Shown: positions 4,516 through 64,000, counted from the stretch's first letter. The stretch: DNA of 64,000 nt from an uncultured Candidatus Saccharibacteria bacterium (GCA_964436015.1 CAYTAR010000002.1:9521-73520), one strand, 5' to 3'. Notes: generated from the sequence alone by a model not told the origin. A program made the numbers and translations.

Positions 4516-4539
4516 CTGTGGAAAGAGTGTTGAGTGTGT

Positions 4540-4710: not shown

Positions 4711-4754
4711 TATAGTATTGGTATGAAATTAATTAATAAAAATAAACTACTAGT

Positions 4755-28211: not shown

Positions 28212-28352
28212 AGCTCTTCCGTAAAGAAGAGATTTTAAATCATATAGATATATTATCTTTCCCTTACGGGCTAGATTGAGCACTTACTTCTTACGAAGAG
28301 TTGCTGGCGGTTCATAGAGCTAGTTCTCTCCCCGCACTCTGGATAACTATTT
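28212..28352 (-). promoter_or_regulatory. SAM-I (S-box) riboswitch with terminator expression platform in the 5' leader of the Cys/Met PLP enzyme
   Basis: Minus strand reads TTATCCAGAGTGCGGGGAGAGAACTAGCTCTATGAACCGCCAGCAAC...GTGCTCAATCTAGC...AAAGATAA. Compare the S-box consensus TTATCAAGAGAGGTGGAGGGACTGGCCCGATGAAACCCGGCAACC...GGTGCCAATTCC...AAAGATGAG. Then CTCTTCtttacgGAAGAG + U-run. Confidence 0.7.
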
Positions 28353-47905: not shown

Positions 47906-48077
47906 CATATTCTCCAAAGCATACCATAGCGTCCCTTTTTTGGTAAAGGAATAGTGTAATGCTATCCACATGGAAGACTGTCAAGATATAGGTAAGGGGA
48001 TACAATAGATATATCGACCCCCGAGGTTCGGTATTTGTCGTATCTCGACCCTCGAGATATGGCTTAAATAAAGAAAA

Positions 48078-48506
48078 ATGAAAAAAATGTCAGACAGATT
48101 CATAACACTCAAGGAAGCTGGTGAATTATCAGGATACAGTTCGGACTATATTGGTCAATTAATCCGAAAAGGAAAACTTCCAGGACAGCAGGTGTATTCA
48201 AACGTTGCCTGGGTAACGACACCTGAAGCTGTGCTTGAGTATATGGAGGGGAGTAAGAGAAAAACACAGAGAAACTCGGAAGATCTGTTATTGCGCATAT
48301 TGAGGGGTGCATACATGTGCGCACTCTGGTTAGTTATTGTGATAGGAGGAATGTTCAGTTTATTTCTGTTTTACATGACATCAGTAAGTATTGATGCACG
48401 ACTCCAGTCTGCTATTCAAACAGAAGTTGAAGAACGTATCGTTACTGAGTTTGCCCAAGATACGAATGAGCGTTTTGTTTCATTTTCTTCACACATATTG
48501 CAGTAA
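48078..48506 (+). CDS. membrane-tethered helix-turn-helix protein (excisionase/MerR-like HTH + TM)
   Basis: ITLKEAGELSGYSSDYIGQLIRKGKLPGQQV HTH, then TM LWLVIVIGGMFSLFLFYM. First gene of the surface-protein locus. Confidence 0.5.
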   Translation: MKKMSDRFITLKEAGELSGYSSDYIGQLIRKGKLPGQQVYSNVAWVTTPEAVLEYMEGSKRKTQRNSEDLLLRILRGAYMCALWLVIVIGGMFSLFLFYMTSVSIDARLQSAIQTEVEERIVTEFAQDTNERFVSFSSHILQ

Positions 48507-50447
48507 ATGATAATCGATAGACCAAAACAGCTGAAAACAGTAGAAGATGCTCTCACTATAAATATGAGAAGTTTTTCGGTGTATCGCATATTAAGTAATT
48601 CATTCAGAACAAGTTTTATGTATCGCGGGCTCGGGAGTCTTTTACTACTCTCGGTGTTAGCTCCCTCAGTGATTCCCGTTTTTGTATATGCTGACGAGAT
48701 ACCAGTAGCTACAGTAAGCACTTCAACCAAAGAGTCTATCGTGCAAGTGGACGTAGATCCTGTTGCTAAGGTTGATTCAAAAGCAGAAGAAACCATCGTT
48801 CCTGTAGATGATTCAGATGAAGGGGGTGTTGAGGAAAATGTGTCAGAAGAGAGTGGTGTTGAGATTAATGATTCTAGTATAGAACATGAGGAGATAGAAG
48901 AAGGTGATGTTAAGGAAAGTGTAATAGAGGAAGAAATCCAGCTGATAGAAATTGCAAGCTCAACGTTGTCTGTTGAGGATGTAAGTGCTACTAGTACCCC
49001 CGCAACCTCAACTCCAATAATAATGAATGAGGAGTCTCAAGTTGGTACTACTACAGTTAGTACTTCCACAACAACACTCGTAGCGAGTACAACAAAAAAT
49101 GAAATAGAAATTTCAGAGGATGAGGGAGTGGCAACAAGTTCTAATAAACTTACGGAAGAAGGTAATACTGCGGGCGCGAGCGGAACAAGCTCGCCCATGT
49201 TAACTGTTGATCCGGCAGACCTTATACCTCCTGATATTACTATTGTTGGCAATAACCCGGCGTTTGTGGCTGTTGGTGTGCAGTATGTTGATCAAGGAGT
49301 CCTTGTAAATGACAACAAAAGCAATAACTTGGGCCACACAATTCGTGTAAATGGTATAGAGGTTGATACGGTAACGCTTGATACAAGTACCACCAGTGAA
49401 TACGCAATAACTTATGTGGCGGTAGATCAAGATGGAAATACAGCAGTGGCAGTCCGAACGGTATTTGTTGGTATCGCAGAAAGTAGTATAGGGGAAGGCG
49501 TGTTAATGGAAAATGGTGTTGCGGGAGGAAGGGCTTCTTCAACTACAGATACCGTTGATGTGGTTTTTGAAGAAAACCATGATTTTGTACCCCAACAAAA
49601 TATTGAGTTTAATCTTTTGAATAAACATGTGTTTTCTGAATCTGATTGTGTGGTAGTGGGGAACGGTGAGTTTTACTGCGTAACCTCTGAGGATGCAAGA
49701 ACAAAGACAACAAACAACACTTCTCCAGTAGTGTTTGCAAAAAAATCAGACCAAGGGAATAAAGAAATATATTTCAATAATGGAGAATCACTTGTACAGA
49801 TCACTAACAATGACTTTGATGATGATCGACCCGTGTATGATGCAATTACTGGTATCATTGTGTGGCAATCACTCCGAGGCGATCGTTTGCAAATAGTATC
49901 CTACAATACCGTAACGGGAGTTGAGGTGGAGATTACTAATACTCCATATAACAACAGCAACCCTCATGTGCAGGGAACGACTGTGGTGTGGCAAGGGTGG
50001 GTAAATAATAACTGGGAAATATTTGTTGCTGATGCGACACGGAAAGCAGAAGACACTCTAGAGCCGGTAACGCGTAATGTGTGGAACGATATGTTTCCAC
50101 AGGTAAAGGGAGATATTGTCACCTGGCAGTCACGAGTAAATGATGCATGGAAAGTGTTTATCTATGATATCCGTACGAAAGAAATATCCGAGGTGGCTGT
50201 TCCTGCTGGGGGAAGTATTGAGAATCCCCGATTCGTTATTTTAGTTGAAAACAGACTTACGAATGGTGATGTAGAGACTTATGGGTATGACATTACTACG
50301 AAAGAAACATTTCCACTTGGTGCAGAGCGAAGGGCTACGCAAGAGATTCCAGAAAATCCGGCACAAACGGAGCCAACCGTGCTTCCTGTGGTGCAGGAGG
50401 TTAGAGCTCCGAAAGACGATGAGGGTGGAGTAGATGATACATTATGA
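48507..50447 (+). CDS. secreted surface protein with an acidic region, an Ig-like (DUF5011-type) domain and beta-propeller-like VxWQ repeats (signal peptide probably starts at nt 48618)
   Basis: MYRGLGSLLLLSVLAPSVIPVFVYA signal; DITIVGNNP...YVDQG Ig-like; repeated ...VVWQ...W.IF..D blades. Confidence 0.55.
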   Translation: MIIDRPKQLKTVEDALTINMRSFSVYRILSNSFRTSFMYRGLGSLLLLSVLAPSVIPVFVYADEIPVATVSTSTKESIVQVDVDPVAKVDSKAEETIVPVDDSDEGGVEENVSEESGVEINDSSIEHEEIEEGDVKESVIEEEIQLIEIASSTLSVEDVSATSTPATSTPIIMNEESQVGTTTVSTSTTTLVASTTKNEIEISEDEGVATSSNKLTEEGNTAGASGTSSPMLTVDPADLIPPDITIVGNNPAFVAVGVQYVDQGVLVNDNKSNNLGHTIRVNGIEVDTVTLDTSTTSEYAITYVAVDQDGNTAVAVRTVFVGIAESSIGEGVLMENGVAGGRASSTTDTVDVVFEENHDFVPQQNIEFNLLNKHVFSESDCVVVGNGEFYCVTSEDARTKTTNNTSPVVFAKKSDQGNKEIYFNNGESLVQITNNDFDDDRPVYDAITGIIVWQSLRGDRLQIVSYNTVTGVEVEITNTPYNNSNPHVQGTTVVWQGWVNNNWEIFVADATRKAEDTLEPVTRNVWNDMFPQVKGDIVTWQSRVNDAWKVFIYDIRTKEISEVAVPAGGSIENPRFVILVENRLTNGDVETYGYDITTKETFPLGAERRATQEIPENPAQTEPTVLPVVQEVRAPKDDEGGVDDTL

Positions 50448-53400
50448 CCCTACGCGCATTGAGAAGAATTTGGGTGAATAAAAAAAAATGGGGAGCACGC
50501 ACGGTGGCGGTTTTTATTGTGTTCACTTTTTTGTTTTCTGATATCTCACAGTTTATTCGTATACCATGGGGTACTATTTTCAGAGCTGAAGCTGCACCTG
50601 TTTTGATTGAGGATACACTCACCATAGTAGATGACTCCATGTTGAATACTTCACCCACAACCGTTTTTATCAGTGATACGGTTGGGTATACTTTTTTTGT
50701 AGATAATGGAAATGCGTGTAGGTATGCCTCAACAACAGATGCGGGGGCTACATGGAGTCTGGCATACACCGTTGACTCGGTTAATACGACAGATTGTTTT
50801 CGTGTCGCGGTGTGGTATGACCAATGGACTCCTGGAGATGATACCGGTACGGTGATACATATTGCAACTCTCGATACGGGCGATGATGATATTTTCTATA
50901 CATCACTTAATACCGTAACTAATCAACTTTCCACAACAGTGATCGCGACAAATCAGGCGGGTACATTTGCTGCGGGTACTAACTATCATTCAATTACGAA
51001 AGGTGGTGATGGAAACTTGTACATGGCTGCAAATGATGCATCGGACAGTTGGATAGTTCGGTGTACGGGCACCTGTACGAGTGCGGGTAATTGGTCAGAA
51101 ATTGCTAATCCGTACGAATTACAGAATGATTGGCCACTTCTTGTGCCGCTTTTGAATGGAAACATAATGACCATACGAATGGATTTATCAGGAAATGATT
51201 ATGACTATAACATTTGGAATGGTTCTATATGGAGTGGATGGACAACTATCTTAACAACCGCGGGTGAGAATGCAACTTTTGATGCTCATTTTGGGGCAAC
51301 GATAGATAAGAGAACAGGGGATGTGTACTTTGTTGGGGTAACTGATAATGCGACGTTGGGAACCGATGACGATATTCGTACCGCATACTACAACCACCAT
51401 AACGGTACGTGGAGTGTGATGGGTAATGTGCTTACTAATGATACAAAAGGTATACGAGACGCTAAAATATTTTTTGACCAGAATTCTGGAGATGTGTATG
51501 TTACCTATTCCGCACTCACCACTCCAAATAGTGCGACAACTGGTAATGTGTACTATAAATATTCAACTGACGGTATGGTTTCGTGGAGCAGTGAGGTACA
51601 GGTAAATACCGTCTCAGGCAACTTGTTTGGTGCGGGACACAATAACTTAATGAGTACTGAGCGTGCATATGTTACATGGAAAAACATATCGGGCGATGAT
51701 TTGTTTGGAGAGACTGTAGTTAATCTTTCTCCGCCTGCGCTTGAGCAGTACTCATATCGATGGTACGAATCTGCGACAAGTACTGCTCCAGGTGCACCTC
51801 TTGCAAATGCAAACACGACCGCAACGTCAACAGAGAGGGGTACGCCATTTCGTCTCCGTATCGCTCTCGATATAGACGATTCAAAAATTGCTTCCAGTTC
51901 TCTCTCTTTTAAACTTCAATATGCAGAGCGGAGTGGGATTTGCGATATTTCTTTTACCGGGGAAACGTACACTGATGTTCTTACTTCAAGTGGGGCAGTG
52001 AGATTTTATGATAATACTGGTGTTGCCTCTGGGGTACAAGCGACGGTGTCTGCGAACGAACCTATTCCGAGTGAAGGTTCTTTTTCTTACCAGTCATATA
52101 TTGAAGGTGGGACATTTACTAATACGTATGGAAGTATCGCAACGAGTAGCGACGGCCTATGGGATTTTTCTTTAATCGATATTTCTTCACCTGAAGAAAC
52201 CCGGTACTGCTTCAGAGTGGTGTATGCGGACGGTAGCACGCTTGAATCATACTCTGTAATTCCTGAACTTATTACCCCATCGCGTCCACCAATTGTTACT
52301 CAGGCGCATTTTCATTTCAGAAATGATAACGGAGGAGAGGATGATGCAACGTCAGCTACAGGAGGGGTTGAGGATACAAATCTTTTTGGTGTATTTCCAA
52401 CCACCACAATACGTATGCGTATTGGAGTTGAAAATAGAGGGTTAAGCACATCAAGTCCAATTCAGTATCGTCTTGAGTACGCGGAAAAAGGCGCGAGTTG
52501 TGAAGTAAGTACAGGCTGGACTGATGTTGGAAGTTCTGGAGGAGCTTTCAATATGAATCCAATTGCAAACTTAACAGAGGGAGGAGATACTACAGATATT
52601 GCGATTGCGTTAGGAGGTGTGAGTACTAATGAATCTTATTTCGTAAGTCCAAACGGTGGTGTTCGAGATACAAATTCACAGACCAGTGCCATAACGCTTG
52701 GTCCTGATGAGTATACTGACCTTGAGTATTCAATTACCGCGACAGGTGACTCAAATGAGGGAACAACATACTGTTTTAGGATAACCGATGCAGGGTCGGT
52801 GATTGATAGTTATAGTGTGTATCCACAGATAACTATGGCTGCTTCAGTAGAAGTATCAACTATCGGTAGTCAGGTGACATCAGTCAATGCAGGAACTAAT
52901 AATTTTTATGTGGGTGGAGCTTTTGTGATAACTGATGGAATAGGAGGGCATTCTGTTACGAGTATTACCATTGCCGAACAGGGAACCGTAGATGCTGGAA
53001 GTAATATAGAAAACATACGCTTATACTACGATCTTGATACGACATTTCCATATGATTGTAGTAGTGAGTCATATGGGGGAGGTGAGTTGCAGTATGGCGC
53101 CACAAGTACCAGTTTTTCCTCCGCAGATGGGACCGCAACTTTTAATGGGTCAGTAGGCATCGATACTGATCAGTCATTATGTTTGTATGTAGTGCTTGAT
53201 ATTGCGAGTGGAGCGAGTGACGGCGAGACTCTTGAAATAGAAATTCCAAATGCAAGTACTGATGTTGTGGTAAGTGATAATCCATCAATTTCACCAACTA
53301 CCTTTGTTCGTTTAGCGGATACAACAACCATAAATAGCTCTGTATTAGATATGACTCATTTCCATTTTAGAAATAATGACGGAGGGGAGGGTGATGCAAC

Positions 53401-56400
53401 GTCAGCTACAGGAGGAGTTGAGGATACGCCGGTGACTGATTTGAGAAAAAACACACCAATACGTCTAAGGTTGCAGGTCGCTAATAGCGGAGGAGTGGGG
53501 GCATCTTCCTTGGCACTTCGTCTTGAGTATGGGGTGAAGGTGAGTTCGTGTAGCGCGGTTTCTGTATGGCAAGATGTCGGTGCCACTGAGGGGGATTGGG
53601 ACATGTATGATTCAACATTTCTTACTGATGGAGACAATACTACGGATATCGTACTTGGTATTGGTGGGGTGAGTAATGAGGGGGTAGATTTTCTTGATGT
53701 GAATGGTGGGGTAAAGGATACTTCCTCTCAAACTGCTCCATTTACGTTGGCTCCAAATGAGTATGTAGAACTTGAGTATTCAGTGTTCGCAACTGCTAGT
53801 TCAACAGCAGAGGGTGAATACTGTTTTCGGGTAACGAACCAAGGCACTCCACTTAATGTGTATTCAGTGTATGCAGAAGTAAGTATTGCTCCAAATCAAG
53901 ATTTTTTCATACAACGCGGTTTTGAGATTGTGAGTGGTACCAGTACTATTTTATACGCGGGAATAGATTACACTCCGCCACGGTTGGGTGGTCGTGCGTT
54001 TGTACGTATCACTAATACGCATCACACAGGCGCAGGGGACGATGATGGGGGAGGAACTCAGAATGCTGATGATGTAACCGCGTACATACTGAATCCTCAG
54101 GATATCGCTACCAGTATTACCATTGCGCGACCAGCGGCAGCGACAATAAATACTGGAGTAGCGTGGGAAATAGTTGAGTATCAAGGCTACCCAGGTGGAG
54201 GTAATGAAATGGTCGTACGCGAACAGGGAAATATATCCATGACAGGTTTATTTGCTACCACATCACCAATAAGTGGGGTGAGTAGCGACAGTGATGTAGT
54301 CGTGTTTATTACTGGAGCAATGACTCCTGATACTGGTACCGCTGATTACAATATGATGCAGGCAGTATCATCGTGGGATGTTCAAAGTCAGAGTGCGGTG
54401 TTTGAGCGAGGTGAGTCAGGAGACACTATCACTCTCAGTTATGCGGTGGTTGAATTTACTGGAAGACATTGGCGTGTGCAACGAGTTGCGCATAATTACT
54501 CGTCTGCTGTTGGCGCAGAGACGGAGACAATACCCTCTTCACTTAACAGTGTTTCTCGTGCATTTTTGCATACTCAGAAACTTGCTGGTGTGGGTGAGCA
54601 GGGCCTGGACGAATTTGGGCATACGGTTTGGATTTCTGGGGTTAATGAAATTTCATTTCAATTACAAAGCGGTGTAACCACACCAACCGCACACCGCTCG
54701 GTTGCATGGGTGATTGAGAATACGCAAGTTAATGGAACTCCAATGAATGTAATACAGTCAAGCGGTACTCAAAGTGGAGGAGCGGAGCCCAGCGTTGCAT
54801 CAATTGATATTGGCACTACGGTGGTTAGTATGGATACAACTTCTGTATTTACTAATTCTCGAGTGAATGGCACAAATACTGCATTCCCAAGACCGATACT
54901 CGCCGTGTATTTAATTTCCCGTACACAGTATCAATTTTGGATTAGTGATACAGGTGGGACGGTAACCTATCAAACTGAGGTGGTTGAGTGGCCAACTGCG
55001 CCAAGAAAGATAACCCAAAACTATTACCGAATATACGTGAATCAAGACACACTACTTCCGTCTGATGTGTGGCCGCAAGGAGCATCATCAATCGGGGAAA
55101 ATACAGTACTTTCACTCAATGATGTGCCTATTGATAGTGGAGATGTTATTCGTATACGTATGTCGGTGTTGGTTGAACAGGGGAATTTACCGGTGAACTA
55201 TCAATCATTTCGTTTGCAGTTTGGTGAACGCGAAACAACATGTTCCGCGGTAAGTGTGTGGCGCGATGTAGGACAAGTGGGAAGCACAACTGCATTATGG
55301 CGCGGATACAATAACGGCAGCGTCACAGATGGGGCAACGCTCTCAAGCGATCCTCCAAATGGAGGAGATTTGGTACTATCAGTTTCTGATAGAGCTGGTA
55401 CGTATGAGGAGTCAAATAATTCCGCGGTGAATCCATTTCCGGTATTCGCGGGAGAAGATGTTGAGTATGATTGGGTTGTTGAAAATAATGGAGCTTTGGA
55501 ATTGACACCGTACTGTTTCCGTATGGTTGAAGCAAATGGTTTGATGCTTGATGACTACGCTTACCACCCAACAGTATTTACCGCTGGGTATGAGGCGGTG
55601 AGCGAAGACTGGCGTTGGTTTGATGATGCTGAAAATGAGACTCCTCTATCAGCTCTTTCTCCAGAAAATTCTGCACCTATTGGAGTAGACTATGATACTA
55701 CCGTACAGTTGAGAGTGTTACTACATGAAATTGCAGGAAAAACTGGACCTCAATTAAAACTCCGTCTTCAGTTTGATGAGTCGGCAAGTTTTACCAATCC
55801 GCAGTTCGTCTCGAATGCGCTTGATTGTGCAGAAGGACTATCTCTCTGGTGTTATGCAGACGGTGGAGGAGTTGATAATGCAACCATAACGACCGCAGTT
55901 TTGACCAATGCAGATTCGTGCGTATCTGAAGTTGGTGATGGATGCGGAACGCACAATGAGCTTGCTACAACGAGTAGTTTATTTACTCATCAACCCAATG
56001 CAAACACAGAGTTTGCGTTTACCATTCGACATGTAGGAGCGCGTGCGAATACAGTCTATTTCTTCAGGATATATGATGTAACCAATGATAGATATGTGAG
56101 TGCAAGCACTACAAAAACGTACCCAAGCTTAGTTACTGAGGGCGCTGGACTTACGTTTACATTAAGTGGTGTTTCTTCGGGTGTAATAACTGAAGGTATC
56201 ACCACTGATAATGCAACAACTCCATACCATATTTCATTTGGCACGCTTCCTTTAAATACGGAGGTTGAAGTGGCGCAACGCCTCACCGTCACCACTAACG
56301 CAACCGAAGGATACCAAGTATTTATGTTTGCAAGGCAAGGATTGTTGTATGATACGGAAGAAATTACTCCAATTACTTCACTTAACTCAAACCCTTTGGG

Positions 56401-56665
56401 GTGGTCTCTTGGGTGCGATACTGGTTCTGTAACTGGTTGTTTCGGATATCATACAGGAGACGATACTCTTGCAGGTGGGTCGGTTAGATTTTCAGCAGAC
56501 GATACGTACGCTCGTTTGACTACGTCACCCCAGGAGATTATTTACAGCTCGCGTCCGGTTATAAACGAATCAACTGACGTGATCTTTAAAACGTGGGTAA
56601 ATGCAGATCAGCCTGGAGGGCTTTATGAGAGTAGTGTGGTGTATATTATTGTCCCTGTATTTTAA
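50444..56665 (+). CDS. giant (2073 aa) Thr/Ser/Gly-rich cell-surface repeat protein
   Basis: N-terminal TM/signal, then at least four ~350-aa repeats each containing C...YCFR(V/I/M) and HFHFRN(D/N)(N/D)GGE(D/G)DATSATGGVEDT. Confidence 0.7.
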   Translation: MTLRALRRIWVNKKKWGARTVAVFIVFTFLFSDISQFIRIPWGTIFRAEAAPVLIEDTLTIVDDSMLNTSPTTVFISDTVGYTFFVDNGNACRYASTTDAGATWSLAYTVDSVNTTDCFRVAVWYDQWTPGDDTGTVIHIATLDTGDDDIFYTSLNTVTNQLSTTVIATNQAGTFAAGTNYHSITKGGDGNLYMAANDASDSWIVRCTGTCTSAGNWSEIANPYELQNDWPLLVPLLNGNIMTIRMDLSGNDYDYNIWNGSIWSGWTTILTTAGENATFDAHFGATIDKRTGDVYFVGVTDNATLGTDDDIRTAYYNHHNGTWSVMGNVLTNDTKGIRDAKIFFDQNSGDVYVTYSALTTPNSATTGNVYYKYSTDGMVSWSSEVQVNTVSGNLFGAGHNNLMSTERAYVTWKNISGDDLFGETVVNLSPPALEQYSYRWYESATSTAPGAPLANANTTATSTERGTPFRLRIALDIDDSKIASSSLSFKLQYAERSGICDISFTGETYTDVLTSSGAVRFYDNTGVASGVQATVSANEPIPSEGSFSYQSYIEGGTFTNTYGSIATSSDGLWDFSLIDISSPEETRYCFRVVYADGSTLESYSVIPELITPSRPPIVTQAHFHFRNDNGGEDDATSATGGVEDTNLFGVFPTTTIRMRIGVENRGLSTSSPIQYRLEYAEKGASCEVSTGWTDVGSSGGAFNMNPIANLTEGGDTTDIAIALGGVSTNESYFVSPNGGVRDTNSQTSAITLGPDEYTDLEYSITATGDSNEGTTYCFRITDAGSVIDSYSVYPQITMAASVEVSTIGSQVTSVNAGTNNFYVGGAFVITDGIGGHSVTSITIAEQGTVDAGSNIENIRLYYDLDTTFPYDCSSESYGGGELQYGATSTSFSSADGTATFNGSVGIDTDQSLCLYVVLDIASGASDGETLEIEIPNASTDVVVSDNPSISPTTFVRLADTTTINSSVLDMTHFHFRNNDGGEGDATSATGGVEDTPVTDLRKNTPIRLRLQVANSGGVGASSLALRLEYGVKVSSCSAVSVWQDVGATEGDWDMYDSTFLTDGDNTTDIVLGIGGVSNEGVDFLDVNGGVKDTSSQTAPFTLAPNEYVELEYSVFATASSTAEGEYCFRVTNQGTPLNVYSVYAEVSIAPNQDFFIQRGFEIVSGTSTILYAGIDYTPPRLGGRAFVRITNTHHTGAGDDDGGGTQNADDVTAYILNPQDIATSITIARPAAATINTGVAWEIVEYQGYPGGGNEMVVREQGNISMTGLFATTSPISGVSSDSDVVVFITGAMTPDTGTADYNMMQAVSSWDVQSQSAVFERGESGDTITLSYAVVEFTGRHWRVQRVAHNYSSAVGAETETIPSSLNSVSRAFLHTQKLAGVGEQGLDEFGHTVWISGVNEISFQLQSGVTTPTAHRSVAWVIENTQVNGTPMNVIQSSGTQSGGAEPSVASIDIGTTVVSMDTTSVFTNSRVNGTNTAFPRPILAVYLISRTQYQFWISDTGGTVTYQTEVVEWPTAPRKITQNYYRIYVNQDTLLPSDVWPQGASSIGENTVLSLNDVPIDSGDVIRIRMSVLVEQGNLPVNYQSFRLQFGERETTCSAVSVWRDVGQVGSTTALWRGYNNGSVTDGATLSSDPPNGGDLVLSVSDRAGTYEESNNSAVNPFPVFAGEDVEYDWVVENNGALELTPYCFRMVEANGLMLDDYAYHPTVFTAGYEAVSEDWRWFDDAENETPLSALSPENSAPIGVDYDTTVQLRVLLHEIAGKTGPQLKLRLQFDESASFTNPQFVSNALDCAEGLSLWCYADGGGVDNATITTAVLTNADSCVSEVGDGCGTHNELATTSSLFTHQPNANTEFAFTIRHVGARANTVYFFRIYDVTNDRYVSASTTKTYPSLVTEGAGLTFTLSGVSSGVITEGITTDNATTPYHISFGTLPLNTEVEVAQRLTVTTNATEGYQVFMFARQGLLYDTEEITPITSLNSNPLGWSLGCDTGSVTGCFGYHTGDDTLAGGSVRFSADDTYARLTTSPQEIIYSSRPVINESTDVIFKTWVNADQPGGLYESSVVYIIVPVF

Positions 56666-56673
56666 TACTATAT

Positions 56674-57690
56674 ATGTCTATTTGGTATACTAGAGGTATG
56701 AGATTATTTGTTCTAGGATTCATATGTTTTGTGAGTGCATTTTTTATTACGCCAGAAATTGCATTTGCAAAGTACATACAAGTATCACCTATTGTAATAA
56801 ATAAAGATTTGCAAGCTCGTGATATTATCCGTGAACAAGTGGTACTGAAGAACACCTCTCCTGCAAAGTTAAATGTGTATACATTTGTTAACAATGTTAC
56901 TTCTGGAACGGAGGGGGGTATTGAGGCATTTCTTGATTATCAACAATCAGAAAAACAAAAGTCGTTGGCAAACTGGATTGAGATTTCACGCGGAGTGATT
57001 GAATTGATGCCAGGAGAAGAAAAAGAAATTGAATTTATTATTAAAGTGCACCATGAGGCTACTCCAGGCGATTATCATGCATTGATTTCTTTCGGAACTG
57101 GAACCAATAGAGATGAGGCTGAACAGCGCCTTACACGAGAGTCATCGGTGATGGTTGTTGGGTCAGTAGTGAAAAATACAAGAGAGCTCCTTCAGGTGAA
57201 AAAATTTACCGCGGGGAATTTATTTTTTTCAGGAACTGATGCGGAGTTCACATACACCCTTCAGAATAATGGTGATGAGGTAATTATCCCTGATGGAGAA
57301 ATCTTGCTTTATGATAGGCGTGGAATTGAGATTGGTGCAATGCGCGTTAACGGACAGGGAGAGAGTATCTTGCCAGGGGAAGAAAAGGAGTTTGTTTCAA
57401 CATGGAGCGGTGAATATAGTCTCGGTCGGCACAAGGCGTACTTGAGTGCAGTGTATGGTGCACAGAAGAAAAACTTGACTGATACCACCTACTTTTTTAT
57501 GTTGCCATGGAAGCAGTTATTACTGTTGTTTACTGTACTTATGTTCTTTACGGTGTATGTTATGCATGTGATTCACGATAAATTTTTTCAAAAGAGAAAA
57601 AAACAGGTTCAATTCAACCGTGTATCTCGTCCAGTAACGCCTCCGGTCCCAGGGGTTGGTGTGATTAATCTCAAACAATATGAGGATTAA
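56674..57690 (+). CDS. cell-surface protein with signal peptide and C-terminal TM anchor (DUF916/DUF3324-like architecture), paralog 1
   Basis: Signal MRLFVLGFICFVSAFFITPEIAFA, a beta-rich ectodomain, and C-terminal TM LLLLFTVLMFFTVYVMHVI + KR tail. Confidence 0.55.
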   Translation: MSIWYTRGMRLFVLGFICFVSAFFITPEIAFAKYIQVSPIVINKDLQARDIIREQVVLKNTSPAKLNVYTFVNNVTSGTEGGIEAFLDYQQSEKQKSLANWIEISRGVIELMPGEEKEIEFIIKVHHEATPGDYHALISFGTGTNRDEAEQRLTRESSVMVVGSVVKNTRELLQVKKFTAGNLFFSGTDAEFTYTLQNNGDEVIIPDGEILLYDRRGIEIGAMRVNGQGESILPGEEKEFVSTWSGEYSLGRHKAYLSAVYGAQKKNLTDTTYFFMLPWKQLLLLFTVLMFFTVYVMHVIHDKFFQKRKKQVQFNRVSRPVTPPVPGVGVINLKQYED

Positions 57691-59365
57691 GTCGGCACAC
57701 AACAGTTGGTTTATAAGGGTAGGAATTGTATTAGTTTTAGTGTGTAGTATTGGATTTTTTTCTTCTTACACGCACGCCCAGGCACCCGCGTCGCTCTCAT
57801 TAAGTGTCACCCCTCCTTTGTTCCAACTCACTACTGCTCCAGGAGAGTATTGGGCGAGCAGTATAAAAGTCATCAATGCCAATTCATATCCATTAACCAT
57901 TGTTGCTGAAGTGGTTAGGTTTGATGCGAGTGGGGAAAGTGGTAATGCTAAATTTTTACCTGTACTTGGCACAGAAGGTGAAGGTAGCACACTTGCGGAT
58001 TGGATTACTCTAGAAGAAATTGAGTTAACTATTCCACCTGAGCAAAGTGCGGTAGTTCCATTTTCAGTACGTATACCACAGGACGCTCCTCCAGGAGGGC
58101 ACTATGCGGCGATACTCATTGGGAATAAATCTGTAAAAGAAGCGGGAGCAGGTCCGCAAGTCGGAGTGTCATCTTTTGTCTCCTCTTTGTTATTTGTTCG
58201 TATTGCGGGTGATGTTGTTGAAACAGGTTCTATTAGAGAATTTTCAGCAGATTCTCTTTTTTATCAAAAGCCAGAAACTTCTTTTTCATTACGGTTTGAA
58301 AATACAGGGAATGTTCACTTGTTGCCACAAGGTGAAATCACCATTTACAACATGTGGGGAAAGGAGAGAGGAGTAATTCCGATAAATCAAAAAACAGATT
58401 TTGGAAACGTACTTCCTCGGTCCATACGAAAATTTGATTTTACTTGGGCGGGGGAGCAAAATCCTCTTGAAGTAGGAAGGTTTTCAGCTGTAGCGATTCT
58501 TACCTATGGGCAGGAGGAAAGAAAAAGTGTGTATGCAAATACGTACTTTTGGGTGATACCCGTGATACCGGTGCTGATTGTCCTCGCTTCAATTTTTGGA
58601 ATTATTGTTTTTGTATCATGGATGGTTAAGTTGTATATCAGACGCGCTCTTGAGCTCCGAGGTATATACATGAATCCTGATGATTTTTTGTCTCCACATA
58701 TGAACACGTCAAAGGTGGATATGAAGATGCTGGTAAACCCTGTTGTGGAAGGAGTTATGGATTTACGTTCAGCTACTTTTCGTGATTCTCTTAGACATAA
58801 GAAAGATATTGTAGAGCCTGCCTCTATGACATATAAAGATTTCTTTAAGAAGTACAAGCGTTTCTTTGTGAGTGTGGCAGGACTCACAATGGTTGTGTTT
58901 ATTTTTATGTTTTTCTTTACTCACGTTCTCGTTCCCGAGCGTGCATTTGATATTACCTTGAATAAGGAAGATGGTGAGGTATCTATTAGTTCGGAGGAGC
59001 TCATTAAGGATAAGCTAGATGAGCAGAATAATTATTTTAATTCAAGTCAAGAAGAGGTTTCTTCTAATATTGCTTCTGGCGAGGTTCAAAGGATTACTAT
59101 TGAATTATTAAATAACACGGGAATTCCAGGCAGGGGTGCTGAGATTGCAGTACTACTTGAACAGAATGGATACAGGATTCAGAAGGTCGGTAATAGTAAT
59201 GAAGAAATGGAAGAAAATCGGGTGTACGGTAATTTTACTGATCCACTTATTGTAGAAGTCATTCAAGATGTTGAAAATATTACCGATAAAGTTTTTACGC
59301 AGATTGATTCAGGGTACACTCAAGGTCAAGCAACAAACACTCTTGTTTTTATTATTTCAAAGTAG
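57680..59365 (+). CDS. cell-surface protein, paralog 2 (ectodomain + TM + extra C-terminal domain)
   Basis: Paralogous to 56674 and 62210: LFVRIAGDVVETGSIREFSAD vs SMKIGGDVIETARIREFSSD. Has an internal TM VIPVIPVLIVLASIFGIIVFV. Confidence 0.55.
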   Translation: MRIKSAHNSWFIRVGIVLVLVCSIGFFSSYTHAQAPASLSLSVTPPLFQLTTAPGEYWASSIKVINANSYPLTIVAEVVRFDASGESGNAKFLPVLGTEGEGSTLADWITLEEIELTIPPEQSAVVPFSVRIPQDAPPGGHYAAILIGNKSVKEAGAGPQVGVSSFVSSLLFVRIAGDVVETGSIREFSADSLFYQKPETSFSLRFENTGNVHLLPQGEITIYNMWGKERGVIPINQKTDFGNVLPRSIRKFDFTWAGEQNPLEVGRFSAVAILTYGQEERKSVYANTYFWVIPVIPVLIVLASIFGIIVFVSWMVKLYIRRALELRGIYMNPDDFLSPHMNTSKVDMKMLVNPVVEGVMDLRSATFRDSLRHKKDIVEPASMTYKDFFKKYKRFFVSVAGLTMVVFIFMFFFTHVLVPERAFDITLNKEDGEVSISSEELIKDKLDEQNNYFNSSQEEVSSNIASGEVQRITIELLNNTGIPGRGAEIAVLLEQNGYRIQKVGNSNEEMEENRVYGNFTDPLIVEVIQDVENITDKVFTQIDSGYTQGQATNTLVFIISK

Positions 59366-59564
59366 GCTATCCACAAATAGTAGGGAGGGCATTTTAAAAT
59401 ATCAACTATAATTACAGTAAGGACCATGTCCTTTTCACCGCTTGGTGAATCGTGCCAGGATGTGTGTCCTATGACGTCGTAGGATAGAGAGGAATTTTTC
59501 CTCGGTATCTTATATTATCAGTAGGTAGTAGTGCCACCTACCGCTAGTTCTTAGAAAGCATTAT

Positions 59565-60704
59565 ATGAATAGCACATACGTATTTGAGCACATCAAGACC
59601 CATAAGTATCTAGCACTCATTGTGTTAGCGGGACTCTTAATGTGGTCAGTCGGCTTGCCTGCGTGGGCACCCATGGCGCAAGCAGCAGCACTCACCAACT
59701 TCAGTGATACACTCACTGATTCGGACGTGAGTGCACCATCTAATCACACGATTGCCTATACGACACCAAACGGTGTCTCGGCAGGAGAGACGATTGTGAT
59801 TACGTTTCCTGCAGGGTTTAACTTAAGTGATTTGTCGTTTAACGACATTGACTTATATGCAGGATCGGAACGAACACTTGGGTCTTCACCTTCAGGTGCA
59901 ACGTGGGGGGTTGCGACAACGTCAACCACTATTACGTTCACTTCAGGAACAGACACTATTGCGTCAAGTACTGCAGTCGTGATTGAGATAGGTACACATG
60001 CAACAGCTGGTGCAACGGGGGATACACAGATTATTAATCCAGGGTCACCTGGCACGCAAATTATCAACGTGTCATCGGGATCAGGAATTGATTCTGCGGA
60101 TACCCGCGTCTACATCATTGATGATGTTGTGGTCACTGCTTCAGTTAACACCACCTTCCTCTTCTCCATCACTGGAGTAGCGAGTGGTGCATCAGTTAAC
60201 GGAAGTCCAACAACCACTGCAGATACAACCACATCAACATCGCTTCCGTTCGGAACACTTAACGCGCTTCAGTCAAAAACTCTTGCGCAAGATCTTTCAG
60301 TAACCACTAACGCAGCAAACGGCTTCGTAGTAACAGTACAGCAAGATCAAAATCTTCGTTCCGCAACGAATGCAGATATTGATGGGTTCATTGATGGGGC
60401 GTATACAAACACTCCAGCTGCATGGGTACAACCATCAGGGTCCCTTGGACAAGAGTGGACATACGGTCACTGGGGTTTAACATCAGAAGATGCTGATTTA
60501 AACACTGATGAATTCGGATCCGATTTGTGGGTTGCAGCGTCAACTACACCTCGGCAAGTCTTCTCACACAATGCACCGTCAAATGGTACAACACCAAACA
60601 GTGGTTCTACCCGAGTCGGTTTCCAGATTGAAATTACTTCACTTCAGGAAGCTGGTACGGACTACACGAACACACTGACGTACATTGCAACGCCGACGTT
60701 CTAG
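59565..60704 (+). CDS. secreted surface protein, WxL-like C-terminal domain, paralog A
   Basis: Signal peptide. The C-terminal 201 aa are identical to those of the next gene. The end LTYIATPTF recalls the terminal motif of WxL domains. Confidence 0.55.
   Translation: MNSTYVFEHIKTHKYLALIVLAGLLMWSVGLPAWAPMAQAAALTNFSDTLTDSDVSAPSNHTIAYTTPNGVSAGETIVITFPAGFNLSDLSFNDIDLYAGSERTLGSSPSGATWGVATTSTTITFTSGTDTIASSTAVVIEIGTHATAGATGDTQIINPGSPGTQIINVSSGSGIDSADTRVYIIDDVVVTASVNTTFLFSITGVASGASVNGSPTTTADTTTSTSLPFGTLNALQSKTLAQDLSVTTNAANGFVVTVQQDQNLRSATNADIDGFIDGAYTNTPAAWVQPSGSLGQEWTYGHWGLTSEDADLNTDEFGSDLWVAASTTPRQVFSHNAPSNGTTPNSGSTRVGFQIEITSLQEAGTDYTNTLTYIATPTF
60101..60704 (+). repeat. 604-bp block identical to 61491-62094 (3' halves of adjacent paralogous surface-protein genes)
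   Basis: Spot checks at the start (tacccgcgtctacatcattgatgatgttgtgg), at 60121/61511 and at the end (...cgccgacgttctag) give a constant offset of 1390; no mismatch was seen, but not every base was compared. Confidence 0.9.
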
Positions 60705-60942
60705 ACGTACTTAGAGCACGCAAAAATCCGCTGTAAAGCGGATTTTTGTTTGTCTGAGACAGTGTGTCCTTGAAGTTAAGGTTGTCTTTTATGTTCGTTA
60801 TCCACAACCAGAAAAGAATTTTTGATAAAAGTCAATTATACTGTACATATTACTGGCGTGTGTCTTTTACACATAAGGTGAGTGGTTGTGAGACTGAGGG
60901 TCATCAGTAGCACATAGATTATCAAGTATATAGTTTATTAGT

Positions 60943-62094
60943 ATGAGTACATATTTTATTTTACACCATATGCGAGGAGGCAAGGCGGTAGGAGCAGTGC
61001 TCCTAATCGCGCTTCTTGCGTGGTCAGTCGGTGCGCCGGCATGGATGAATGTTGCACAAGCAGCAGCACTCACCAACTTCAGTGATACACTCACTGATTC
61101 TGATGTGGGGGCGTTAAGTAACCACACAATTGCGTTCACTACTCCAAATGGGGTTGATGCAGGACAGACTATTACTGTTACCTTCCCAGGAGGTTTTGGT
61201 CTTGGGTCTATAACTGAGGATGATGTTGACATTGATAGTGCAGGAACTCCGCTCACTACTGCAGCGGATTGTTCGGGAAGTGAGGAGGCTGGGGTTGGTA
61301 TTTCAGGACAAATTATTACGATTGATATTTGCTCCGGAGATGGAGGGGACATTGCGTCTTCTACTGCGGTGGTAATTAGAATTGGAACGAATGCGGTTGA
61401 TAGTGGAACAGGAACAAACCAAATTACAAACCACGCAACTCCAGGTACATATATTATTGCAGTTGGAGGGACAATGCAGGATTCAGGTTCTACCCGCGTC
61501 TACATCATTGATGATGTTGTGGTCACTGCTTCAGTTAACACCACCTTCCTCTTCTCCATCACTGGAGTAGCGAGTGGTGCATCAGTTAACGGAAGTCCAA
61601 CAACCACTGCAGATACAACCACATCAACATCGCTTCCGTTCGGAACACTTAACGCGCTTCAGTCAAAAACTCTTGCGCAAGATCTTTCAGTAACCACTAA
61701 CGCAGCAAACGGCTTCGTAGTAACAGTACAGCAAGATCAAAATCTTCGTTCCGCAACGAATGCAGATATTGATGGGTTCATTGATGGGGCGTATACAAAC
61801 ACTCCAGCTGCATGGGTACAACCATCAGGGTCCCTTGGACAAGAGTGGACATACGGTCACTGGGGTTTAACATCAGAAGATGCTGATTTAAACACTGATG
61901 AATTCGGATCCGATTTGTGGGTTGCAGCGTCAACTACACCTCGGCAAGTCTTCTCACACAATGCACCGTCAAATGGTACAACACCAAACAGTGGTTCTAC
62001 CCGAGTCGGTTTCCAGATTGAAATTACTTCACTTCAGGAAGCTGGTACGGACTACACGAACACACTGACGTACATTGCAACGCCGACGTTCTAG
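60943..62094 (+). CDS. secreted surface protein, paralog B (3' 604 bp identical to 60101-60704)
   Basis: N-terminal ~90 aa conserved, middle divergent, 61491-62094 nt-identical to paralog A. Confidence 0.55.
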   Translation: MSTYFILHHMRGGKAVGAVLLIALLAWSVGAPAWMNVAQAAALTNFSDTLTDSDVGALSNHTIAFTTPNGVDAGQTITVTFPGGFGLGSITEDDVDIDSAGTPLTTAADCSGSEEAGVGISGQIITIDICSGDGGDIASSTAVVIRIGTNAVDSGTGTNQITNHATPGTYIIAVGGTMQDSGSTRVYIIDDVVVTASVNTTFLFSITGVASGASVNGSPTTTADTTTSTSLPFGTLNALQSKTLAQDLSVTTNAANGFVVTVQQDQNLRSATNADIDGFIDGAYTNTPAAWVQPSGSLGQEWTYGHWGLTSEDADLNTDEFGSDLWVAASTTPRQVFSHNAPSNGTTPNSGSTRVGFQIEITSLQEAGTDYTNTLTYIATPTF

Positions 62095-62121
62095 TGCGCT
62101 TATATACAAAACTATATACAA

Positions 62122-62155
62122 GAATTACACCCGCGAATGCGGGTGTAATTCTTTT
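62122..62155 (+). terminator. terminator after surface paralog B
   Basis: GAATTACACCCGCgaatGCGGGTGTAATTCTTTTG. Confidence 0.75.
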
Positions 62156-62209
62156 GCGAGGACTGAAGAGAGTGGTATTATTGATGTGTTACTAACCAAT
62201 ACTACGTTC

Positions 62210-63289
62210 ATGACATTTATACTACGAAACGATCGCACACTATTCAATATACTATTATTTTTTGTACTGAGTATTATTGGGCTTGCTTGCTTGCCCACTT
62301 CAGTGTTTGGGCAGTCAAGCTCAGGTATTAGAGTGCAGCCTTCGTTTATTGAAGAGGCGGTTAATCCGGGGGATACGTACAGTGAAATACTTCAGATAAA
62401 AAATGAGAGTGATGTTGAGGAAACATACTATGTAAGTGTGAGGAATATAAAAGGATTAACTGGTAATGATAATGCTCCAGTGTTTGCAGATGAAGGTGAA
62501 GTCACTGGGCTTGAAGTTGCTTCATGGGTTACTCTTTCAGCAGACAGTGCGACCGTTCTGCCTGGTGAAACCGCACAGATTCCTTTTAGTGTTGTGGTAC
62601 CGAAAGATGCGTCTCCGGGGAGTCATATAGGAGGAATATTTGTGACACGGACCCCTCCACGACTACGTGAGACTGGAGCAGGAGTGGGTATTCAAGTAGT
62701 CAGTATTCTTAGTATGAAAATAGGGGGAGATGTAATTGAAACTGCGCGTATCAGAGAGTTTTCTTCTGATAAAAACATATACAGTACCCCGAAAGCAGAA
62801 TTTACCGTAAGTGTAGAAAATGAGGGAAATATTCTGATTAGACCACAAGGGTTTATAGAAATAACTAATATGTTTGGCGAGCGGGTTGCTCAGCTTAAGA
62901 TTAATGAACGAGCAGGTGCGGTGTTACCAAAAGCGGAACGTAGATTTTCAGTGGAGTGGGAGGGGGATAGTCTCTCTTTTGGAAGATATCAAGTACATGC
63001 AGGTCTGGTGTTTGGAGATTATGGAAGACAGAATATTGAAAGTAATTTATTTATCTGGGTTCTTCCTATGAAAATTATCACGCCTTTTCTTGGCGGACTG
63101 CTTTTCCTTGTGTTTGTAATTTATATCAGTATTCGGATACATGTCAGAAATAAGTTACGTACTGTAGAGAGAACTCATGCACGATTTGTTCATGATGAGG
63201 CGCCGTTGTCAAAATTGACTTTCATTGCTGTCGCAGTACTTGCGTTTACAATTCTTTTCCTGCTAGGAGTGTTTATCTTTTTCGCATAA
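62210..63289 (+). CDS. cell-surface protein, paralog 3 (start trimmed to the MTFILRNDRT signal peptide)
   Basis: Same family as 56674 and 57680. Two C-terminal TM helices. An upstream terminator at 62122-62155 argues against the longer ORF-track start. Confidence 0.5.
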   Translation: MTFILRNDRTLFNILLFFVLSIIGLACLPTSVFGQSSSGIRVQPSFIEEAVNPGDTYSEILQIKNESDVEETYYVSVRNIKGLTGNDNAPVFADEGEVTGLEVASWVTLSADSATVLPGETAQIPFSVVVPKDASPGSHIGGIFVTRTPPRLRETGAGVGIQVVSILSMKIGGDVIETARIREFSSDKNIYSTPKAEFTVSVENEGNILIRPQGFIEITNMFGERVAQLKINERAGAVLPKAERRFSVEWEGDSLSFGRYQVHAGLVFGDYGRQNIESNLFIWVLPMKIITPFLGGLLFLVFVIYISIRIHVRNKLRTVERTHARFVHDEAPLSKLTFIAVAVLAFTILFLLGVFIFFA

Positions 63290-63290
63290 A

Positions 63291-63692
63291 ATGAGACGAA
63301 AGAGTAACAAAATAGAACATAATATCAGGTATGCACTAGCGATTGGAGCGACCGTGCTGTCGCTTACCTCCCTTGTGTATCGGGTTGATACAAGCATGCC
63401 AGGAGCGTCTACTTTGGTGGGAAATGTAGTTGGTGTTACTGCTCAGATTCCCCCGAATGAATTAAGTAGACTCGCACAACAGTTTGATGAAAAAGATAAG
63501 GAATTGAGTGCTCGCGAAGCTGAAATTGCGGATCGTGAGCGAGCGCTCAATGCACTACTTCGTAAAGGGAATGAGAGGGGTGTGATTGCAAATTATGCTT
63601 TTGCGGGTGCGCTTCTTCTTCTCTTTATTCTTGTAGGAATTAATTTCTACCAAGATTGGAAAGGAAGAAAAATTCCTAGACAGAGTGTATGA
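63291..63692 (+). CDS. small membrane protein with a coiled-coil region
   Basis: 133 aa; N- and C-terminal TM helices around a charged helical segment. Confidence 0.4.
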   Translation: MRRKSNKIEHNIRYALAIGATVLSLTSLVYRVDTSMPGASTLVGNVVGVTAQIPPNELSRLAQQFDEKDKELSAREAEIADRERALNALLRKGNERGVIANYAFAGALLLLFILVGINFYQDWKGRKIPRQSV

Positions 63693-64000
63693 GGGCCTTT
63701 GGTATAACTCTGGTGGTGATAATTGCATCAGTGGTAGTCACAAGTCTTGTAGTGCGTGCCACCGAGTATGTATCTAGCAGAGGATTAACCGCGAACGTGC
63801 ATTCAATTAGCACTATGTGCAAGCGTGGTATGACCTATGTACCAACAGAGCAGGGAGGGTTTTGCATTGATATATTCGAGCGGTCAGCTGGTTCTCGTTG
63901 TGTGTATGATACTCCTGAAAATAGTATTCAAACGGGACAAAATATTCAGATTATGGAATGTGAAAGTGAGTCTGTAAGGGGACGTATTCCATGGGTAAAT
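63689..64000 (+). CDS. membrane-anchored protein (3' partial; runs off the window)
   Basis: ATGA overlap with the previous stop; N-terminal TM ITLVVIIASVVVTSLVV; the open frame reaches the window end. Confidence 0.4.
   Translation, partial: MRAFGITLVVIIASVVVTSLVVRATEYVSSRGLTANVHSISTMCKRGMTYVPTEQGGFCIDIFERSAGSRCVYDTPENSIQTGQNIQIMECESESVRGRIPWVN

Follow-up and report, generated by a model that had tools for sequence, protein, structure and literature searches.

A putative Pam-type pilus locus with WxLIP-related membrane-anchored proteins in the candidate phyla radiation

Introduction

Bacteria of the candidate phyla radiation (CPR, Patescibacteria) are thought to be attached to other cells, and their attachment organelles are largely unknown. 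Here we analyse a stretch of 64,000 nucleotides deposited under an uncultured Candidatus Saccharibacteria bacterium (GCA_964436015.1 CAYTAR010000002.1:9521-73520; 'the window' throughout), which contains a cluster of genes for secreted and membrane-anchored proteins. An earlier inspection without database searches (the sequence-only reading) had likened this cluster to the WxL/DUF916/DUF3324 complexes of Firmicutes. From its sequence the locus of this ultra-small bacterium is plausibly an adhesion apparatus, and with a probability of roughly 0.6 it encodes a thin adhesive filament on the cell surface, the form which the Pam pilus of CPR bacteria, assembled by chaperones without an usher, takes in the Paceibacteria (Parcubacteria).

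Pam pili have so far been described in one 2026 preprint and in a single species of the Saccharimonadia, Ca. Mycosynbacter amalyticus (Troman et al., bioRxiv 10.64898/2026.03.03.709456). The filaments were solved by cryo-electron microscopy (cryo-EM). The pilins PamA and PamB consist of a nine-strand N-terminal domain (N-domain), a strand serving as linker and an immunoglobulin (Ig)-like domain at the C-terminus (C-domain); linker and C-domain are conserved and the N-domain is variable. Assembly involves no usher and relies on PapD-like chaperones with a C-terminal transmembrane (TM) helix. The system was found mostly in Saccharimonadia and Microgenomatia, and the preprint makes no mention of WxL or DUF916 (bioRxiv 10.64898/2026.03.03.709456).

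In Firmicutes, WxL/Csc clusters (Hassan et al., 2023, PMC10599100) encode WxL proteins together with a WxL-interacting protein (WxLIP), which combines DUF916, DUF3324 and a TM segment. In published AlphaFold models, the beta-sandwich of the WxL domain has a gap which a hairpin strand of the WxLIP occupies (PMC10599100); on these models this would be strand complementation of the chaperone type. According to the current picture each WxLIP holds one WxL protein without polymerisation, and filaments are not known from WxL clusters. A complex of an Enterococcus faecium WxLIP bound to a long WxL protein has been deposited (PDB 9i25).

Results

Two secreted paralogs have the domain plan of Pam pilins

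Our reading of the locus draws on the genes present, on their homologies and domain plans, and on how they are conserved and arranged in related loci; the coordinates of all features are given in Table 1. The two secreted paralogs, which we refer to as pilin 1 and pilin 2, are 77% identical overall and their last 204 residues are 100% identical, in agreement with the sequence-only reading, which had recognized two secreted paralogs with a common C-terminal domain. Both have the signal for Sec export expected of Pam pilins, a hydrophobic N-terminus with an AQA/A site (predicted cleavage in pilin 1 ...AQA/AALT, from hydropathy and sequence).

The AlphaFold2 (AF2) monomer model of pilin 2 has a mean confidence (pLDDT) of 88.3 and shows nine strands in residues 44-188, followed by the linker and the C-domain, which is the plan of the Pam pilins. 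The linker has no secondary structure in this monomer and the lowest confidence (pLDDT 64). Among 119 divergent pilins, the fraction of the most frequent residue was 0.59-0.65 in the linker and 0.70-0.83 in blocks of the C-domain, compared with 0.27-0.40 in the core of the N-domain. Thus, as in the Pam system, conservation is highest in linker and C-domain. A linker which is conserved and yet unstructured in the modelled monomer is what a donor strand would be expected to look like.

The C-domain is always located at the extreme C-terminus of the family proteins. Clustered at 90%, the relatives of the pilins exceed 1,500 proteins, all from CPR bacteria. At 50% identity the C-domain family falls into 1,445 clusters, and the species representatives of GTDB contain 316 loci. 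Pfam contains no matching family for the pilins or their relatives. Their sole recurrent family match is the NCBIfam model NF058581 (CPR_Pam_pilin_C), which has a curated cut-off of 55 bits and gave 18.8 bits for pilin 1 (E 0.0014) and 20.4 bits for pilin 2 (E 4.3e-4). Matches below the cut-off were obtained for 92 of 134 relatives: 41 of the 62 close ones (best E 2.5e-6) and 51 of the 72 distant ones (best E 1.5e-10). By that model, the window pilins rank as distant relatives of NF058581 and not as members. Searches of PDB sequences with single pilin sequences and with profiles revealed nothing relevant, and fold searches with the whole pilin model told us little, since all matches were to Ig-like adhesins and pilins of a generic kind.

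On the DNA level, the linker and C-domain modules of pilin 1 (60095-60704) and pilin 2 (61485-62094) differ by 1 mismatch in about 610 nucleotides, as found by windowed DNA alignment and a repeat finder. The 5' halves of the two genes are only about 45-55% identical, and the flanks are unrelated. We interpret this near-identity as probable gene conversion of a polymerisation module, which would leave the surface N-domain free to diverge. An open reading frame (ORF) for 161 residues is located antisense to the start of the pilin 2 gene and the intergenic region before it (60867-61352, minus strand); its product would be Pro/Ser-rich and it is probably no gene.

Three membrane-anchored paralogs are related to WxLIPs

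The genes chapA, chapB and chapC encode three paralogs with pairwise identities of 23-32% (chapB 23% to chapA and 32% to chapC); in BLASTP, chapC matches chapB with E 2e-48 and chapA with E 4e-25. The AF2 model of chapA (pLDDT 88) consists of two beta-sandwich domains and a TM helix (residues 279-315), in addition to a signal peptide and a basic tail. This corresponds to the two-domain, PapD/FimC-like chaperones with C-terminal TM helix of the Pam system, the match to PamC and PamD being by description. In chapC, a signal peptide precedes the two beta-sandwich domains, and the C-terminal part contains two TM segments. The sequence-only reading had described three paralogs with signal peptide and C-terminal anchor, and the signal-like N-termini, the C-terminal TM segments and the sequence identity bear this out. 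What it had missed is that chapB has two TM segments more than described and ends in a LytR_C domain (residues 471-516 matched, from nucleotide ~59090), with E 1.2e-5 and a score exceeding the gathering threshold. In chapB, a WxLIP-type ectodomain is followed by a TM segment (residues 292-310), a cytoplasmic loop and a second TM segment (residues 395-413).

Foldseek comparison of the AlphaFold model, proposed by the sequence-only reading, placed Vibrio cholerae RbmA first for chapA (1.8e-11), followed by the E. faecium WxLIP (bound to WxL, 9i25_C at 2.8e-10, and also alone, 9i1y) and by the chaperones CfaA, CsuC, Caf1M and YadV of chaperone-usher systems (1e-9 to 1e-7). A PapD-like carboxylate anchor formed by the conserved basic residues R49, R106 and K254 of chapA was considered and rejected, as these residues are not kept in chapB or chapC.

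In Pfam, the WxLIP_PGBD family was hit by chapA with E 0.0016, below the cut-off, and by chapC with E 6.6e-4; the best window protein reaches 20.2 bits, the gathering score being 27.3 bits. WxLIP_PGBD is the commonest weak match in the anchored family (19 of 58 members, best E 1.1e-5, none at the gathering score). Two family-level comparisons were stronger. A broad profile of the anchored family, run against PDB sequences, gave EfmWxLIP1 (9i25/9i1y) as top match with E 1.4e-7. With hhalign, the family aligned to eight Firmicutes WxLIPs, taken from plasmid WxL clusters, with 98.5% probability and E 3.2e-15 over 261 columns covering both domains; a further hhalign comparison of the family with WxLIP, made for chapA, gave 97.4% and E 9.7e-12, chapB as a single sequence P 6e-5, and chapC P 5.7e-5. 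Because of the profile match (E 1.4e-7) and the hhalign result (E 3.2e-15) we regard the homology as settled. By sequence comparison, then, the three anchored paralogs are genuine WxLIP homologues (DUF916/DUF3324 plus TM). A WxLIP, which a WxL/Csc cluster should contain, is thus recognized by family alignment, with no single protein at the Pfam gathering score.

The C-domain resembles the WxL domain in motifs only

By eye, the C-domain shares with the WxL domain an FG motif, a G[WF]xVTV motif and a C-terminal Y..LT[WY], and hhalign aligned the region from FG to G[WF]xVTV with WxL at P 0.06. The Pfam WxL family (PF13731) had no matches in the locus or in 134 family members, so that the two or more PF13731 proteins which a WxL/Csc cluster has within four genes of its WxLIP were not found. 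A profile of the C-domain did not match the WxL chain of 9i25, hidden Markov model (HMM) comparison with E. faecium WxL yielded scores of about 0 bits, and hhalign with 16 WxL domains from plasmids gave P 0.06-0.12, a slight advantage over controls (0.14-0.65). The C-domain is therefore not demonstrably a WxL domain, as Pfam, the 9i25 profile, the E. faecium HMM and hhalign were all non-significant, and we take the resemblance of the motifs as a lead only. The Firmicutes analogy drawn by the sequence-only reading was accordingly right for the DUF916/DUF3324 proteins and for the layout of the locus and wrong for the WxL domain, and it overlooked the closer Pam system.

A giant protein ends in the pilin C-domain

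The 2073-residue protein ('the giant') has a signal or TM segment at residues 20-38 and an N-terminal domain at residues ~50-430, which is weakly BNR/sialidase-like (BNR_2 with E 0.016 only) and conserved in 35 of 79 related pilin loci. Five repeats of about 180 residues (435-612, 618-799, 968-1149, ~1500-1713 and ~1715-1880, by phmmer; second versus third repeat E 5e-53) confirm the earlier description as a repeat protein; two unique inserts are also present. The last ~171 residues are 27% identical to the pilin C-domain in BLASTP (E 1e-6, aligned to the last residue) and match the C-domain HMM at positions 3-184 of 184 with E 3.9e-13. The layout of one large and several small proteins with a common C-terminal domain, noted earlier for the small proteins, thus extends to the giant.

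A search of the giant for the pilin N-domain, by HMM, and for the linker strand gave no match. The same form, a C-domain without N-domain and linker, is found in the giants of the nearest relative and of two other loci (L033 and L076), and other long members of the C-domain family have lectin-like or propeller N-terminal parts (Laminin_G_3, LVIVD, choice-of-anchor B). By analogy with FimH and PapG, the giant is a candidate tip adhesin: it would be a subunit which only accepts a strand and which carries an extended binding portion. Since the acceptor C-domain is present while the pilin N-domain and linker are undetected, it would be incorporated first and sit at the tip.

The 646-residue protein encoded upstream contains an Ig-like domain (PF16403, Bact_surface_Ig-like, E 6.7e-10, above the gathering score, residues 244-321), preceded by an acidic spacer rich in Thr and Ser, and a beta-propeller at residues ~370-640 (repeats of TIGR04275, E 1e-11), both as predicted from the sequence alone. 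Its N-terminus is hydrophobic, and the signal peptide is more typical with a start at Met38 (nucleotide 48618). The propeller part is encoded directly upstream of giant homologues in 30 of the 79 pilin loci. The 646-residue protein is a conserved partner of the giant.

Related loci conserve the gene set and extend beyond the window

The closest public relative is a 'Candidatus Paceibacterota' metagenome-assembled genome, and the relatives all belong to the Patescibacteria/CPR. We compared 79 related pilin loci and a subset of 58, all from other species and no shorter than 15 kb. As proposed by the sequence-only reading, the locus could be traced through related genomes: in the subset, a WxLIP-type gene is present in 52 loci, most often directly downstream of a pilin gene, a TM-anchored cohesin protein in 51, the 646-residue/giant pair in 29-32, a donor-only protein in 24 and the gene for the 133-residue protein in 22. 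The gene arrangement is not by chance, because 52 of these 58 loci hold a homologue of the anchored paralogs and 29-32 hold the pair. In most of the related loci the pilin gene has a gene of the chapC type as its immediate downstream neighbour. This chapC-type gene is directly followed by a homologue of the 133-residue protein in 32 of the 79, and the 133-residue protein is a conserved companion of chapC. Judging from these comparisons, the window cluster joins modules which are often separate in other genomes.

The region past position 64000 was read from the nearest relative (L004), the pilins of which are 76% identical to those of the window. Gene order is the same, and the cluster is about 9 kb or more longer. 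Past chapC and the 133-residue part follow, in this order, two FGE-sulfatase-like proteins, a 614-residue protein, HSP20, a cohesin protein with a C-terminal TM segment and a 5,649-residue protein. In the 614-residue protein the pilin N-domain and linker are present (HMM E 5e-26) while the C-domain is missing, and its C-terminus is a Dockerin_1 domain above the gathering score; the cohesin protein is encoded near this donor-only dockerin protein. Dockerin-bearing proteins are present in both loci examined, L004 and L001; the cohesin and dockerin proteins are encoded at L004 14458-16302 and 16803-18287 and at L001 12178-16364. The set of subunits would suit a polar polymer: an acceptor-only giant, donor-plus-acceptor pilins and, in the relative, a donor-only dockerin protein.

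The two FGE-sulfatase proteins of the nearest relative are secreted paralogs (L004 12756-14453, after the gene for the 133-residue protein); the first, with E 6.5e-10 to FGE-sulfatase, is the homologue of the ORF which the end of the window truncates. Such proteins have homologues in 24 of the 79 pilin loci, and it is conceivable that they modify pilins. In many Paceibacteria a pilin gene is located downstream of a MacB-type ABC pair (ABC_tran and MacB_PCD/FtsX) and a weakly WxLIP-like gene for ~320 residues; the module is seen in two type II pilin loci (L001 1624-4381 and L002 2751-5283), and the window is without it.

Hairpins follow both pilin genes

Intrinsic-terminator-like hairpins follow the genes for pilin 1 (-27.4 kcal/mol, z -6.9) and pilin 2 (-27.3 kcal/mol, z -6.7); in each case 0 of 200 shuffled sequences were as stable. 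They were located by reading and folding the intergenic regions. A scan for consensus promoters and terminators found no more sites than in shuffled sequence and missed both hairpins. The hairpins are compatible with abundant pilin synthesis, the genes further downstream being reached by read-through. As the second hairpin falls inside the extension that a start at TTG 62075 would give, the start codon of chapC is most likely ATG 62210.

Extent of the cluster and other genes of the window

The cluster comprises nine consecutive, co-directional and tightly packed ORFs on the plus strand (48078-63692; ORF listing), encoding 142, 646, 2073, 338, 561, 379, 383, 404 and 133 residues in this order, 5,059 in total. 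The sequence-only reading had correctly seen the run of surface protein genes and had counted eight of them with about 5,300 residues, leaving the gene for the 133-residue protein undescribed. Its end point at 63692 does not hold: a tenth ORF, the ATGA start of which overlaps the stop codon of the gene for the 133-residue protein, leaves the window, and the nearest relative's cluster continues as described above. We place the start of the cluster at 48078 because the upstream neighbour, a nucleotidyl transferase gene (47180-47971), is on the opposite strand. By hydropathy, all locus proteins except the first have hydrophobic, signal-like N-termini and the anchored ones C-terminal TM segments; in the 133-residue protein the N-terminal stretch is only weakly hydrophobic, recognizable by eye and under the hydropathy threshold.

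The first protein (142 residues) shows matches to HTH_17 (E 0.005) and to an excisionase-type helix-turn-helix (E 0.02), both under the cut-off. Together with its TM segment they support the membrane-tethered helix-turn-helix protein of the sequence-only reading, and a membrane-tethered regulator is possible. As its homologue adjoins chapA-like genes in just 2 of the 79 related loci, its membership in the system is weak. Adjacent helix-turn-helix genes also occur in two enterococcal plasmid WxL clusters (L085 7430-8950 and L091 2718-3722).

Table 1. Features of the pilus-like gene cluster (positions in the window)
Feature	Position	Strand	Description and evidence
HTH-TM protein, 142 residues	48078..48506	+	N-terminal helix-turn-helix, one TM segment (residues 71-89), short C-terminal tail
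646-residue secreted protein	48507..50447	+	Ig-like domain and beta-propeller; Pfam/NCBIfam matches
2073-residue giant protein	50444..56665	+	candidate tip adhesin; repeat mapping, HMM
C-terminal pilin-type (acceptor) domain of the giant, residues ~1903-2073	56150..56662	+	BLASTP, HMM
chapA, 338 residues	56674..57690	+	WxLIP-type, membrane-anchored; candidate pilus chaperone; AF2, Foldseek, hhalign
chapB, 561 residues	57680..59365	+	WxLIP-type paralog with LytR_C; BLASTP, Pfam, hhalign, hydropathy
Pilin 1, 379 residues	59565..60704	+	signal peptide, variable N-domain, conserved linker, C-domain ending ...ATPTF
Linker and C-domain module of pilin 1	60095..60704	+	windowed DNA alignment, repeat finder
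Hairpin after pilin 1	60720..60752	+	intrinsic-terminator-like, T-run, 16 nucleotides past the stop codon
Pilin 2, 383 residues	60943..62094	+	N-domain residues 40-188, linker 189-201, C-domain 202-383
Hairpin after pilin 2	62120..62156	+	intrinsic-terminator-like; predicted 15-bp stem, then TTTT
chapC, 359 residues (404 if TTG 62075)	62210..63289	+	third WxLIP-type paralog; BLASTP, hhalign, synteny
133-residue protein	63291..63692	+	coiled-coil-like middle, C-terminal TM segment (residues 99-117; hydropathy)
Partial further gene	63689..64000	+	5' part; FGE-sulfatase-type by comparison with L004 12756-13580

The window is chromosomal, with genes for DnaA, DnaN, PBP1, PolA, RuvABC, a PilB-type ATPase and PilM. 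As dnaA and dnaN are located at 3169-5855 and the cumulative GC skew rises steadily along the window, it probably starts close to the replication origin. The sequence-only reading had named pilB/pilMNO as a further part of the adhesion apparatus. The PilB-type ATPase (T2SSE, E 3e-108; 12860-14578, minus strand) and PilM (E 2e-35) were found; for PilN and PilO there are just two small ORFs after pilM (182 and 187 residues) without family match, which may encode them. The region of pilM is 32200-34437, plus strand. A gene for a pyridoxal phosphate enzyme of Cys/Met metabolism (26991-28175, minus strand) is preceded by a SAM riboswitch (28250-28349, minus strand), which scores 64 bits and passes the gathering threshold. 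An ORF for 645 residues (40070-42007, plus strand) has no Pfam match. A tRNA-Pyl (anticodon CTA) called by ARAGORN inside chapB (57968-58043, minus strand) is probably a false positive, as Rfam gives no tRNA there.

Discussion

The locus shares with the Pam system the CPR lineage, Sec-exported subunits, two pilin paralogs per operon, the lack of an usher, the pilin plan with linker and C-domain as the most conserved parts, two-domain, TM-anchored chaperone-like proteins and an RbmA-like fold among the anchored proteins. It differs in having three anchored paralogs, one of them fused to LytR_C, a 2073-residue protein with an acceptor domain in place of the single-domain PamT, and a near-identical polymerisation module common to the pilin paralogs. 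The neighbours are propeller, FGE-sulfatase-like and cohesin/dockerin proteins here and ATP synthase, CorB and MFS genes around pamA, and the class is Paceibacteria, whereas Pam pili are mostly from Saccharimonadia and Microgenomatia.

We infer strand complementation, polymerisation, subunit order, anchoring and adhesion as follows. Sec would export all components. The chap proteins would hold fresh subunits by a beta-strand inserted into the C-terminal domain of the subunit, and in donor-strand exchange the conserved linker of an incoming pilin would take the place of the strand that the chaperone had lent to the preceding subunit's C-domain. The giant, with its acceptor C-domain and no detected pilin N-domain or linker, would be incorporated first and act as adhesin at the tip. 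The two pilins, with near-identical linker and C-domain and different exposed N-domains, would be interchangeable in the shaft. A donor-only subunit with dockerin, as in the relative, would end the filament and tie it to the membrane-anchored cohesin protein, and the terminator hairpins would ensure that transcripts for pilins outnumber those for chaperones. Indirect signs of polymerisation by donor-strand exchange are the conserved linker, unstructured in the model, and the acceptor-only and donor-only relatives.

The same logic of acceptor-only tip adhesin, donor-plus-acceptor shaft and donor-only terminator, as we reconstruct it here, operates in chaperone-usher pili (Pap/Fim, CFA/I, Csu, Caf1), the two-domain chaperone fold of which is among the top structural matches. 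The intrinsic-terminator-like hairpin after each major-subunit gene, which would favour more pilin than chaperone transcript, is a further likeness, to the regulation of the pap and fim genes. Unlike those pili, the present system has no usher and no outer membrane, its chaperones would be membrane-anchored, and its donor strand would be an internal linker instead of an N-terminal extension. A Pfam scan of all locus proteins revealed neither a PapD nor an usher match, so that it is not a classical chaperone-usher locus.

Several observations weigh against a Pam-type pilus. At 19-20 bits the pilins fall short of the NF058581 cut-off of 55, and PamA to PamD could be compared only through this model and by description. 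NCBIfam scans of the anchored paralogs gave no Pam chaperone family. No window protein matches the PamT model (NF058579) at E <= 0.1, and the single-domain PamT is not present in the window; the giant, which has the acceptor domain without a detected N-domain or linker, could fill its role in a different form. With RbmA as the best structural match of chapA, at least one of the paralogs could be a PamR-like anchor and not a chaperone. The dockerin and cohesin genes are outside the window and seen in relatives only, and the near-identical 610-nucleotide repeat rests on a metagenome assembly.

The main rival is a non-polymerising surface complex of the WxL/Csc type, in which each anchored WxLIP-like protein would hold one C-domain protein by strand complementation. 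The solid WxLIP homology of all three anchored paralogs, over both domains and with the TM segment, speaks for it, and so do the layout, in which WxLIP-type genes accompany one large and two small secreted proteins with a common domain at the extreme C-terminus (PMC10599100), the adjacent helix-turn-helix gene, as in the two enterococcal clusters compared, and the WxL-like motifs of the C-domain, two of them aligned at P 0.06. Yet Pfam, HMM and hhalign detect no significant WxL domain, and the small proteins are more than C-domains, having an N-domain and a conserved linker which is unstructured in the monomer. Donor-only and acceptor-only relatives are sensible for a polar polymer, and the recurrent sub-threshold similarity is to the C-domain of Pam pilins, the filaments of which have been solved by cryo-EM. 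The locus also differs from WxL clusters in its CPR host and in lacking an LPXTG protein. Overall we judge such a complex unlikely.

A scaffold or coat, cellulosome- or S-layer-like, displaying the Thr/Ser-rich pilins and the giant via cohesin-dockerin pairs, with the anchored paralogs as Ig-domain spacers, is more improbable still. It would account for the TM-anchored cohesin proteins in 51 of 58 loci and for the dockerins in both loci examined, and the nearest relative does combine a donor-only subunit bearing a dockerin with a TM-anchored cohesin protein. However, the pilins and the giant have no dockerin, the cohesin similarity is only at the level of a generic beta-sandwich, and the WxLIP homology, the matches to the Pam pilin C-domain and the conserved linker would be left unexplained. 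In comparison with cellulosomes there are no glycoside hydrolases or scaffoldin repeats, the genes lie beyond the window, and the role in anchoring a pilus is our suggestion. A Gram-positive pilus assembled by sortase and a type IV pilus component were also considered, the genes for PilB and PilM elsewhere in the window being the point in favour. Both are ruled out, to very near certainty, by the protein termini: the pilins end in ...TLTYIATPTF without LPXTG, hydrophobic stretch or basic tail, no sortase is among the locus proteins, and at the N-terminus there is a usual Sec signal including an AXA site instead of the class III signal of prepilins.

A Pam-type pilus in this locus would add a related and much larger family, widespread in Paceibacteria, to the described Pam pili. 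The family has parts of its own: a giant with the pilin C-domain, three chaperone paralogs, variation of the N-domain on a shared polymerisation module and, in relatives, cohesin and dockerin. Statistically solid is the link between the anchored 'chaperones' of CPR bacteria and the WxLIPs of enterococci, listeriae and lactobacilli, the mechanism of which is debated. It connects two systems, Pam and WxLIP, which have previously been described separately, and predicts that WxLIP acts as a chaperone and that PamC and PamD (WP_260763277.1 and WP_260763284.1) are WxLIP homologues.

We suggest, tentatively and with more doubt than belief, that the Firmicutes WxL/Csc system and the CPR Pam pili are two branches of one ancient monoderm system. 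The Paceibacteria family would bridge them, because its anchored proteins are clear WxLIP homologues and the C-domain of its subunits is Pam-like with collinear WxL-like motifs. If this is true, a membrane-anchored chaperone of the WxLIP type would complete the C-terminal domain of secreted subunits by strand insertion throughout that system. WxLIP would then serve in assembly as a chaperone and not in binding to the host, a like assembly or even polymerisation might apply to WxL proteins, and giant CPR adhesins could sit on the tips of pili which are anchored via cohesin-dockerin pairs.

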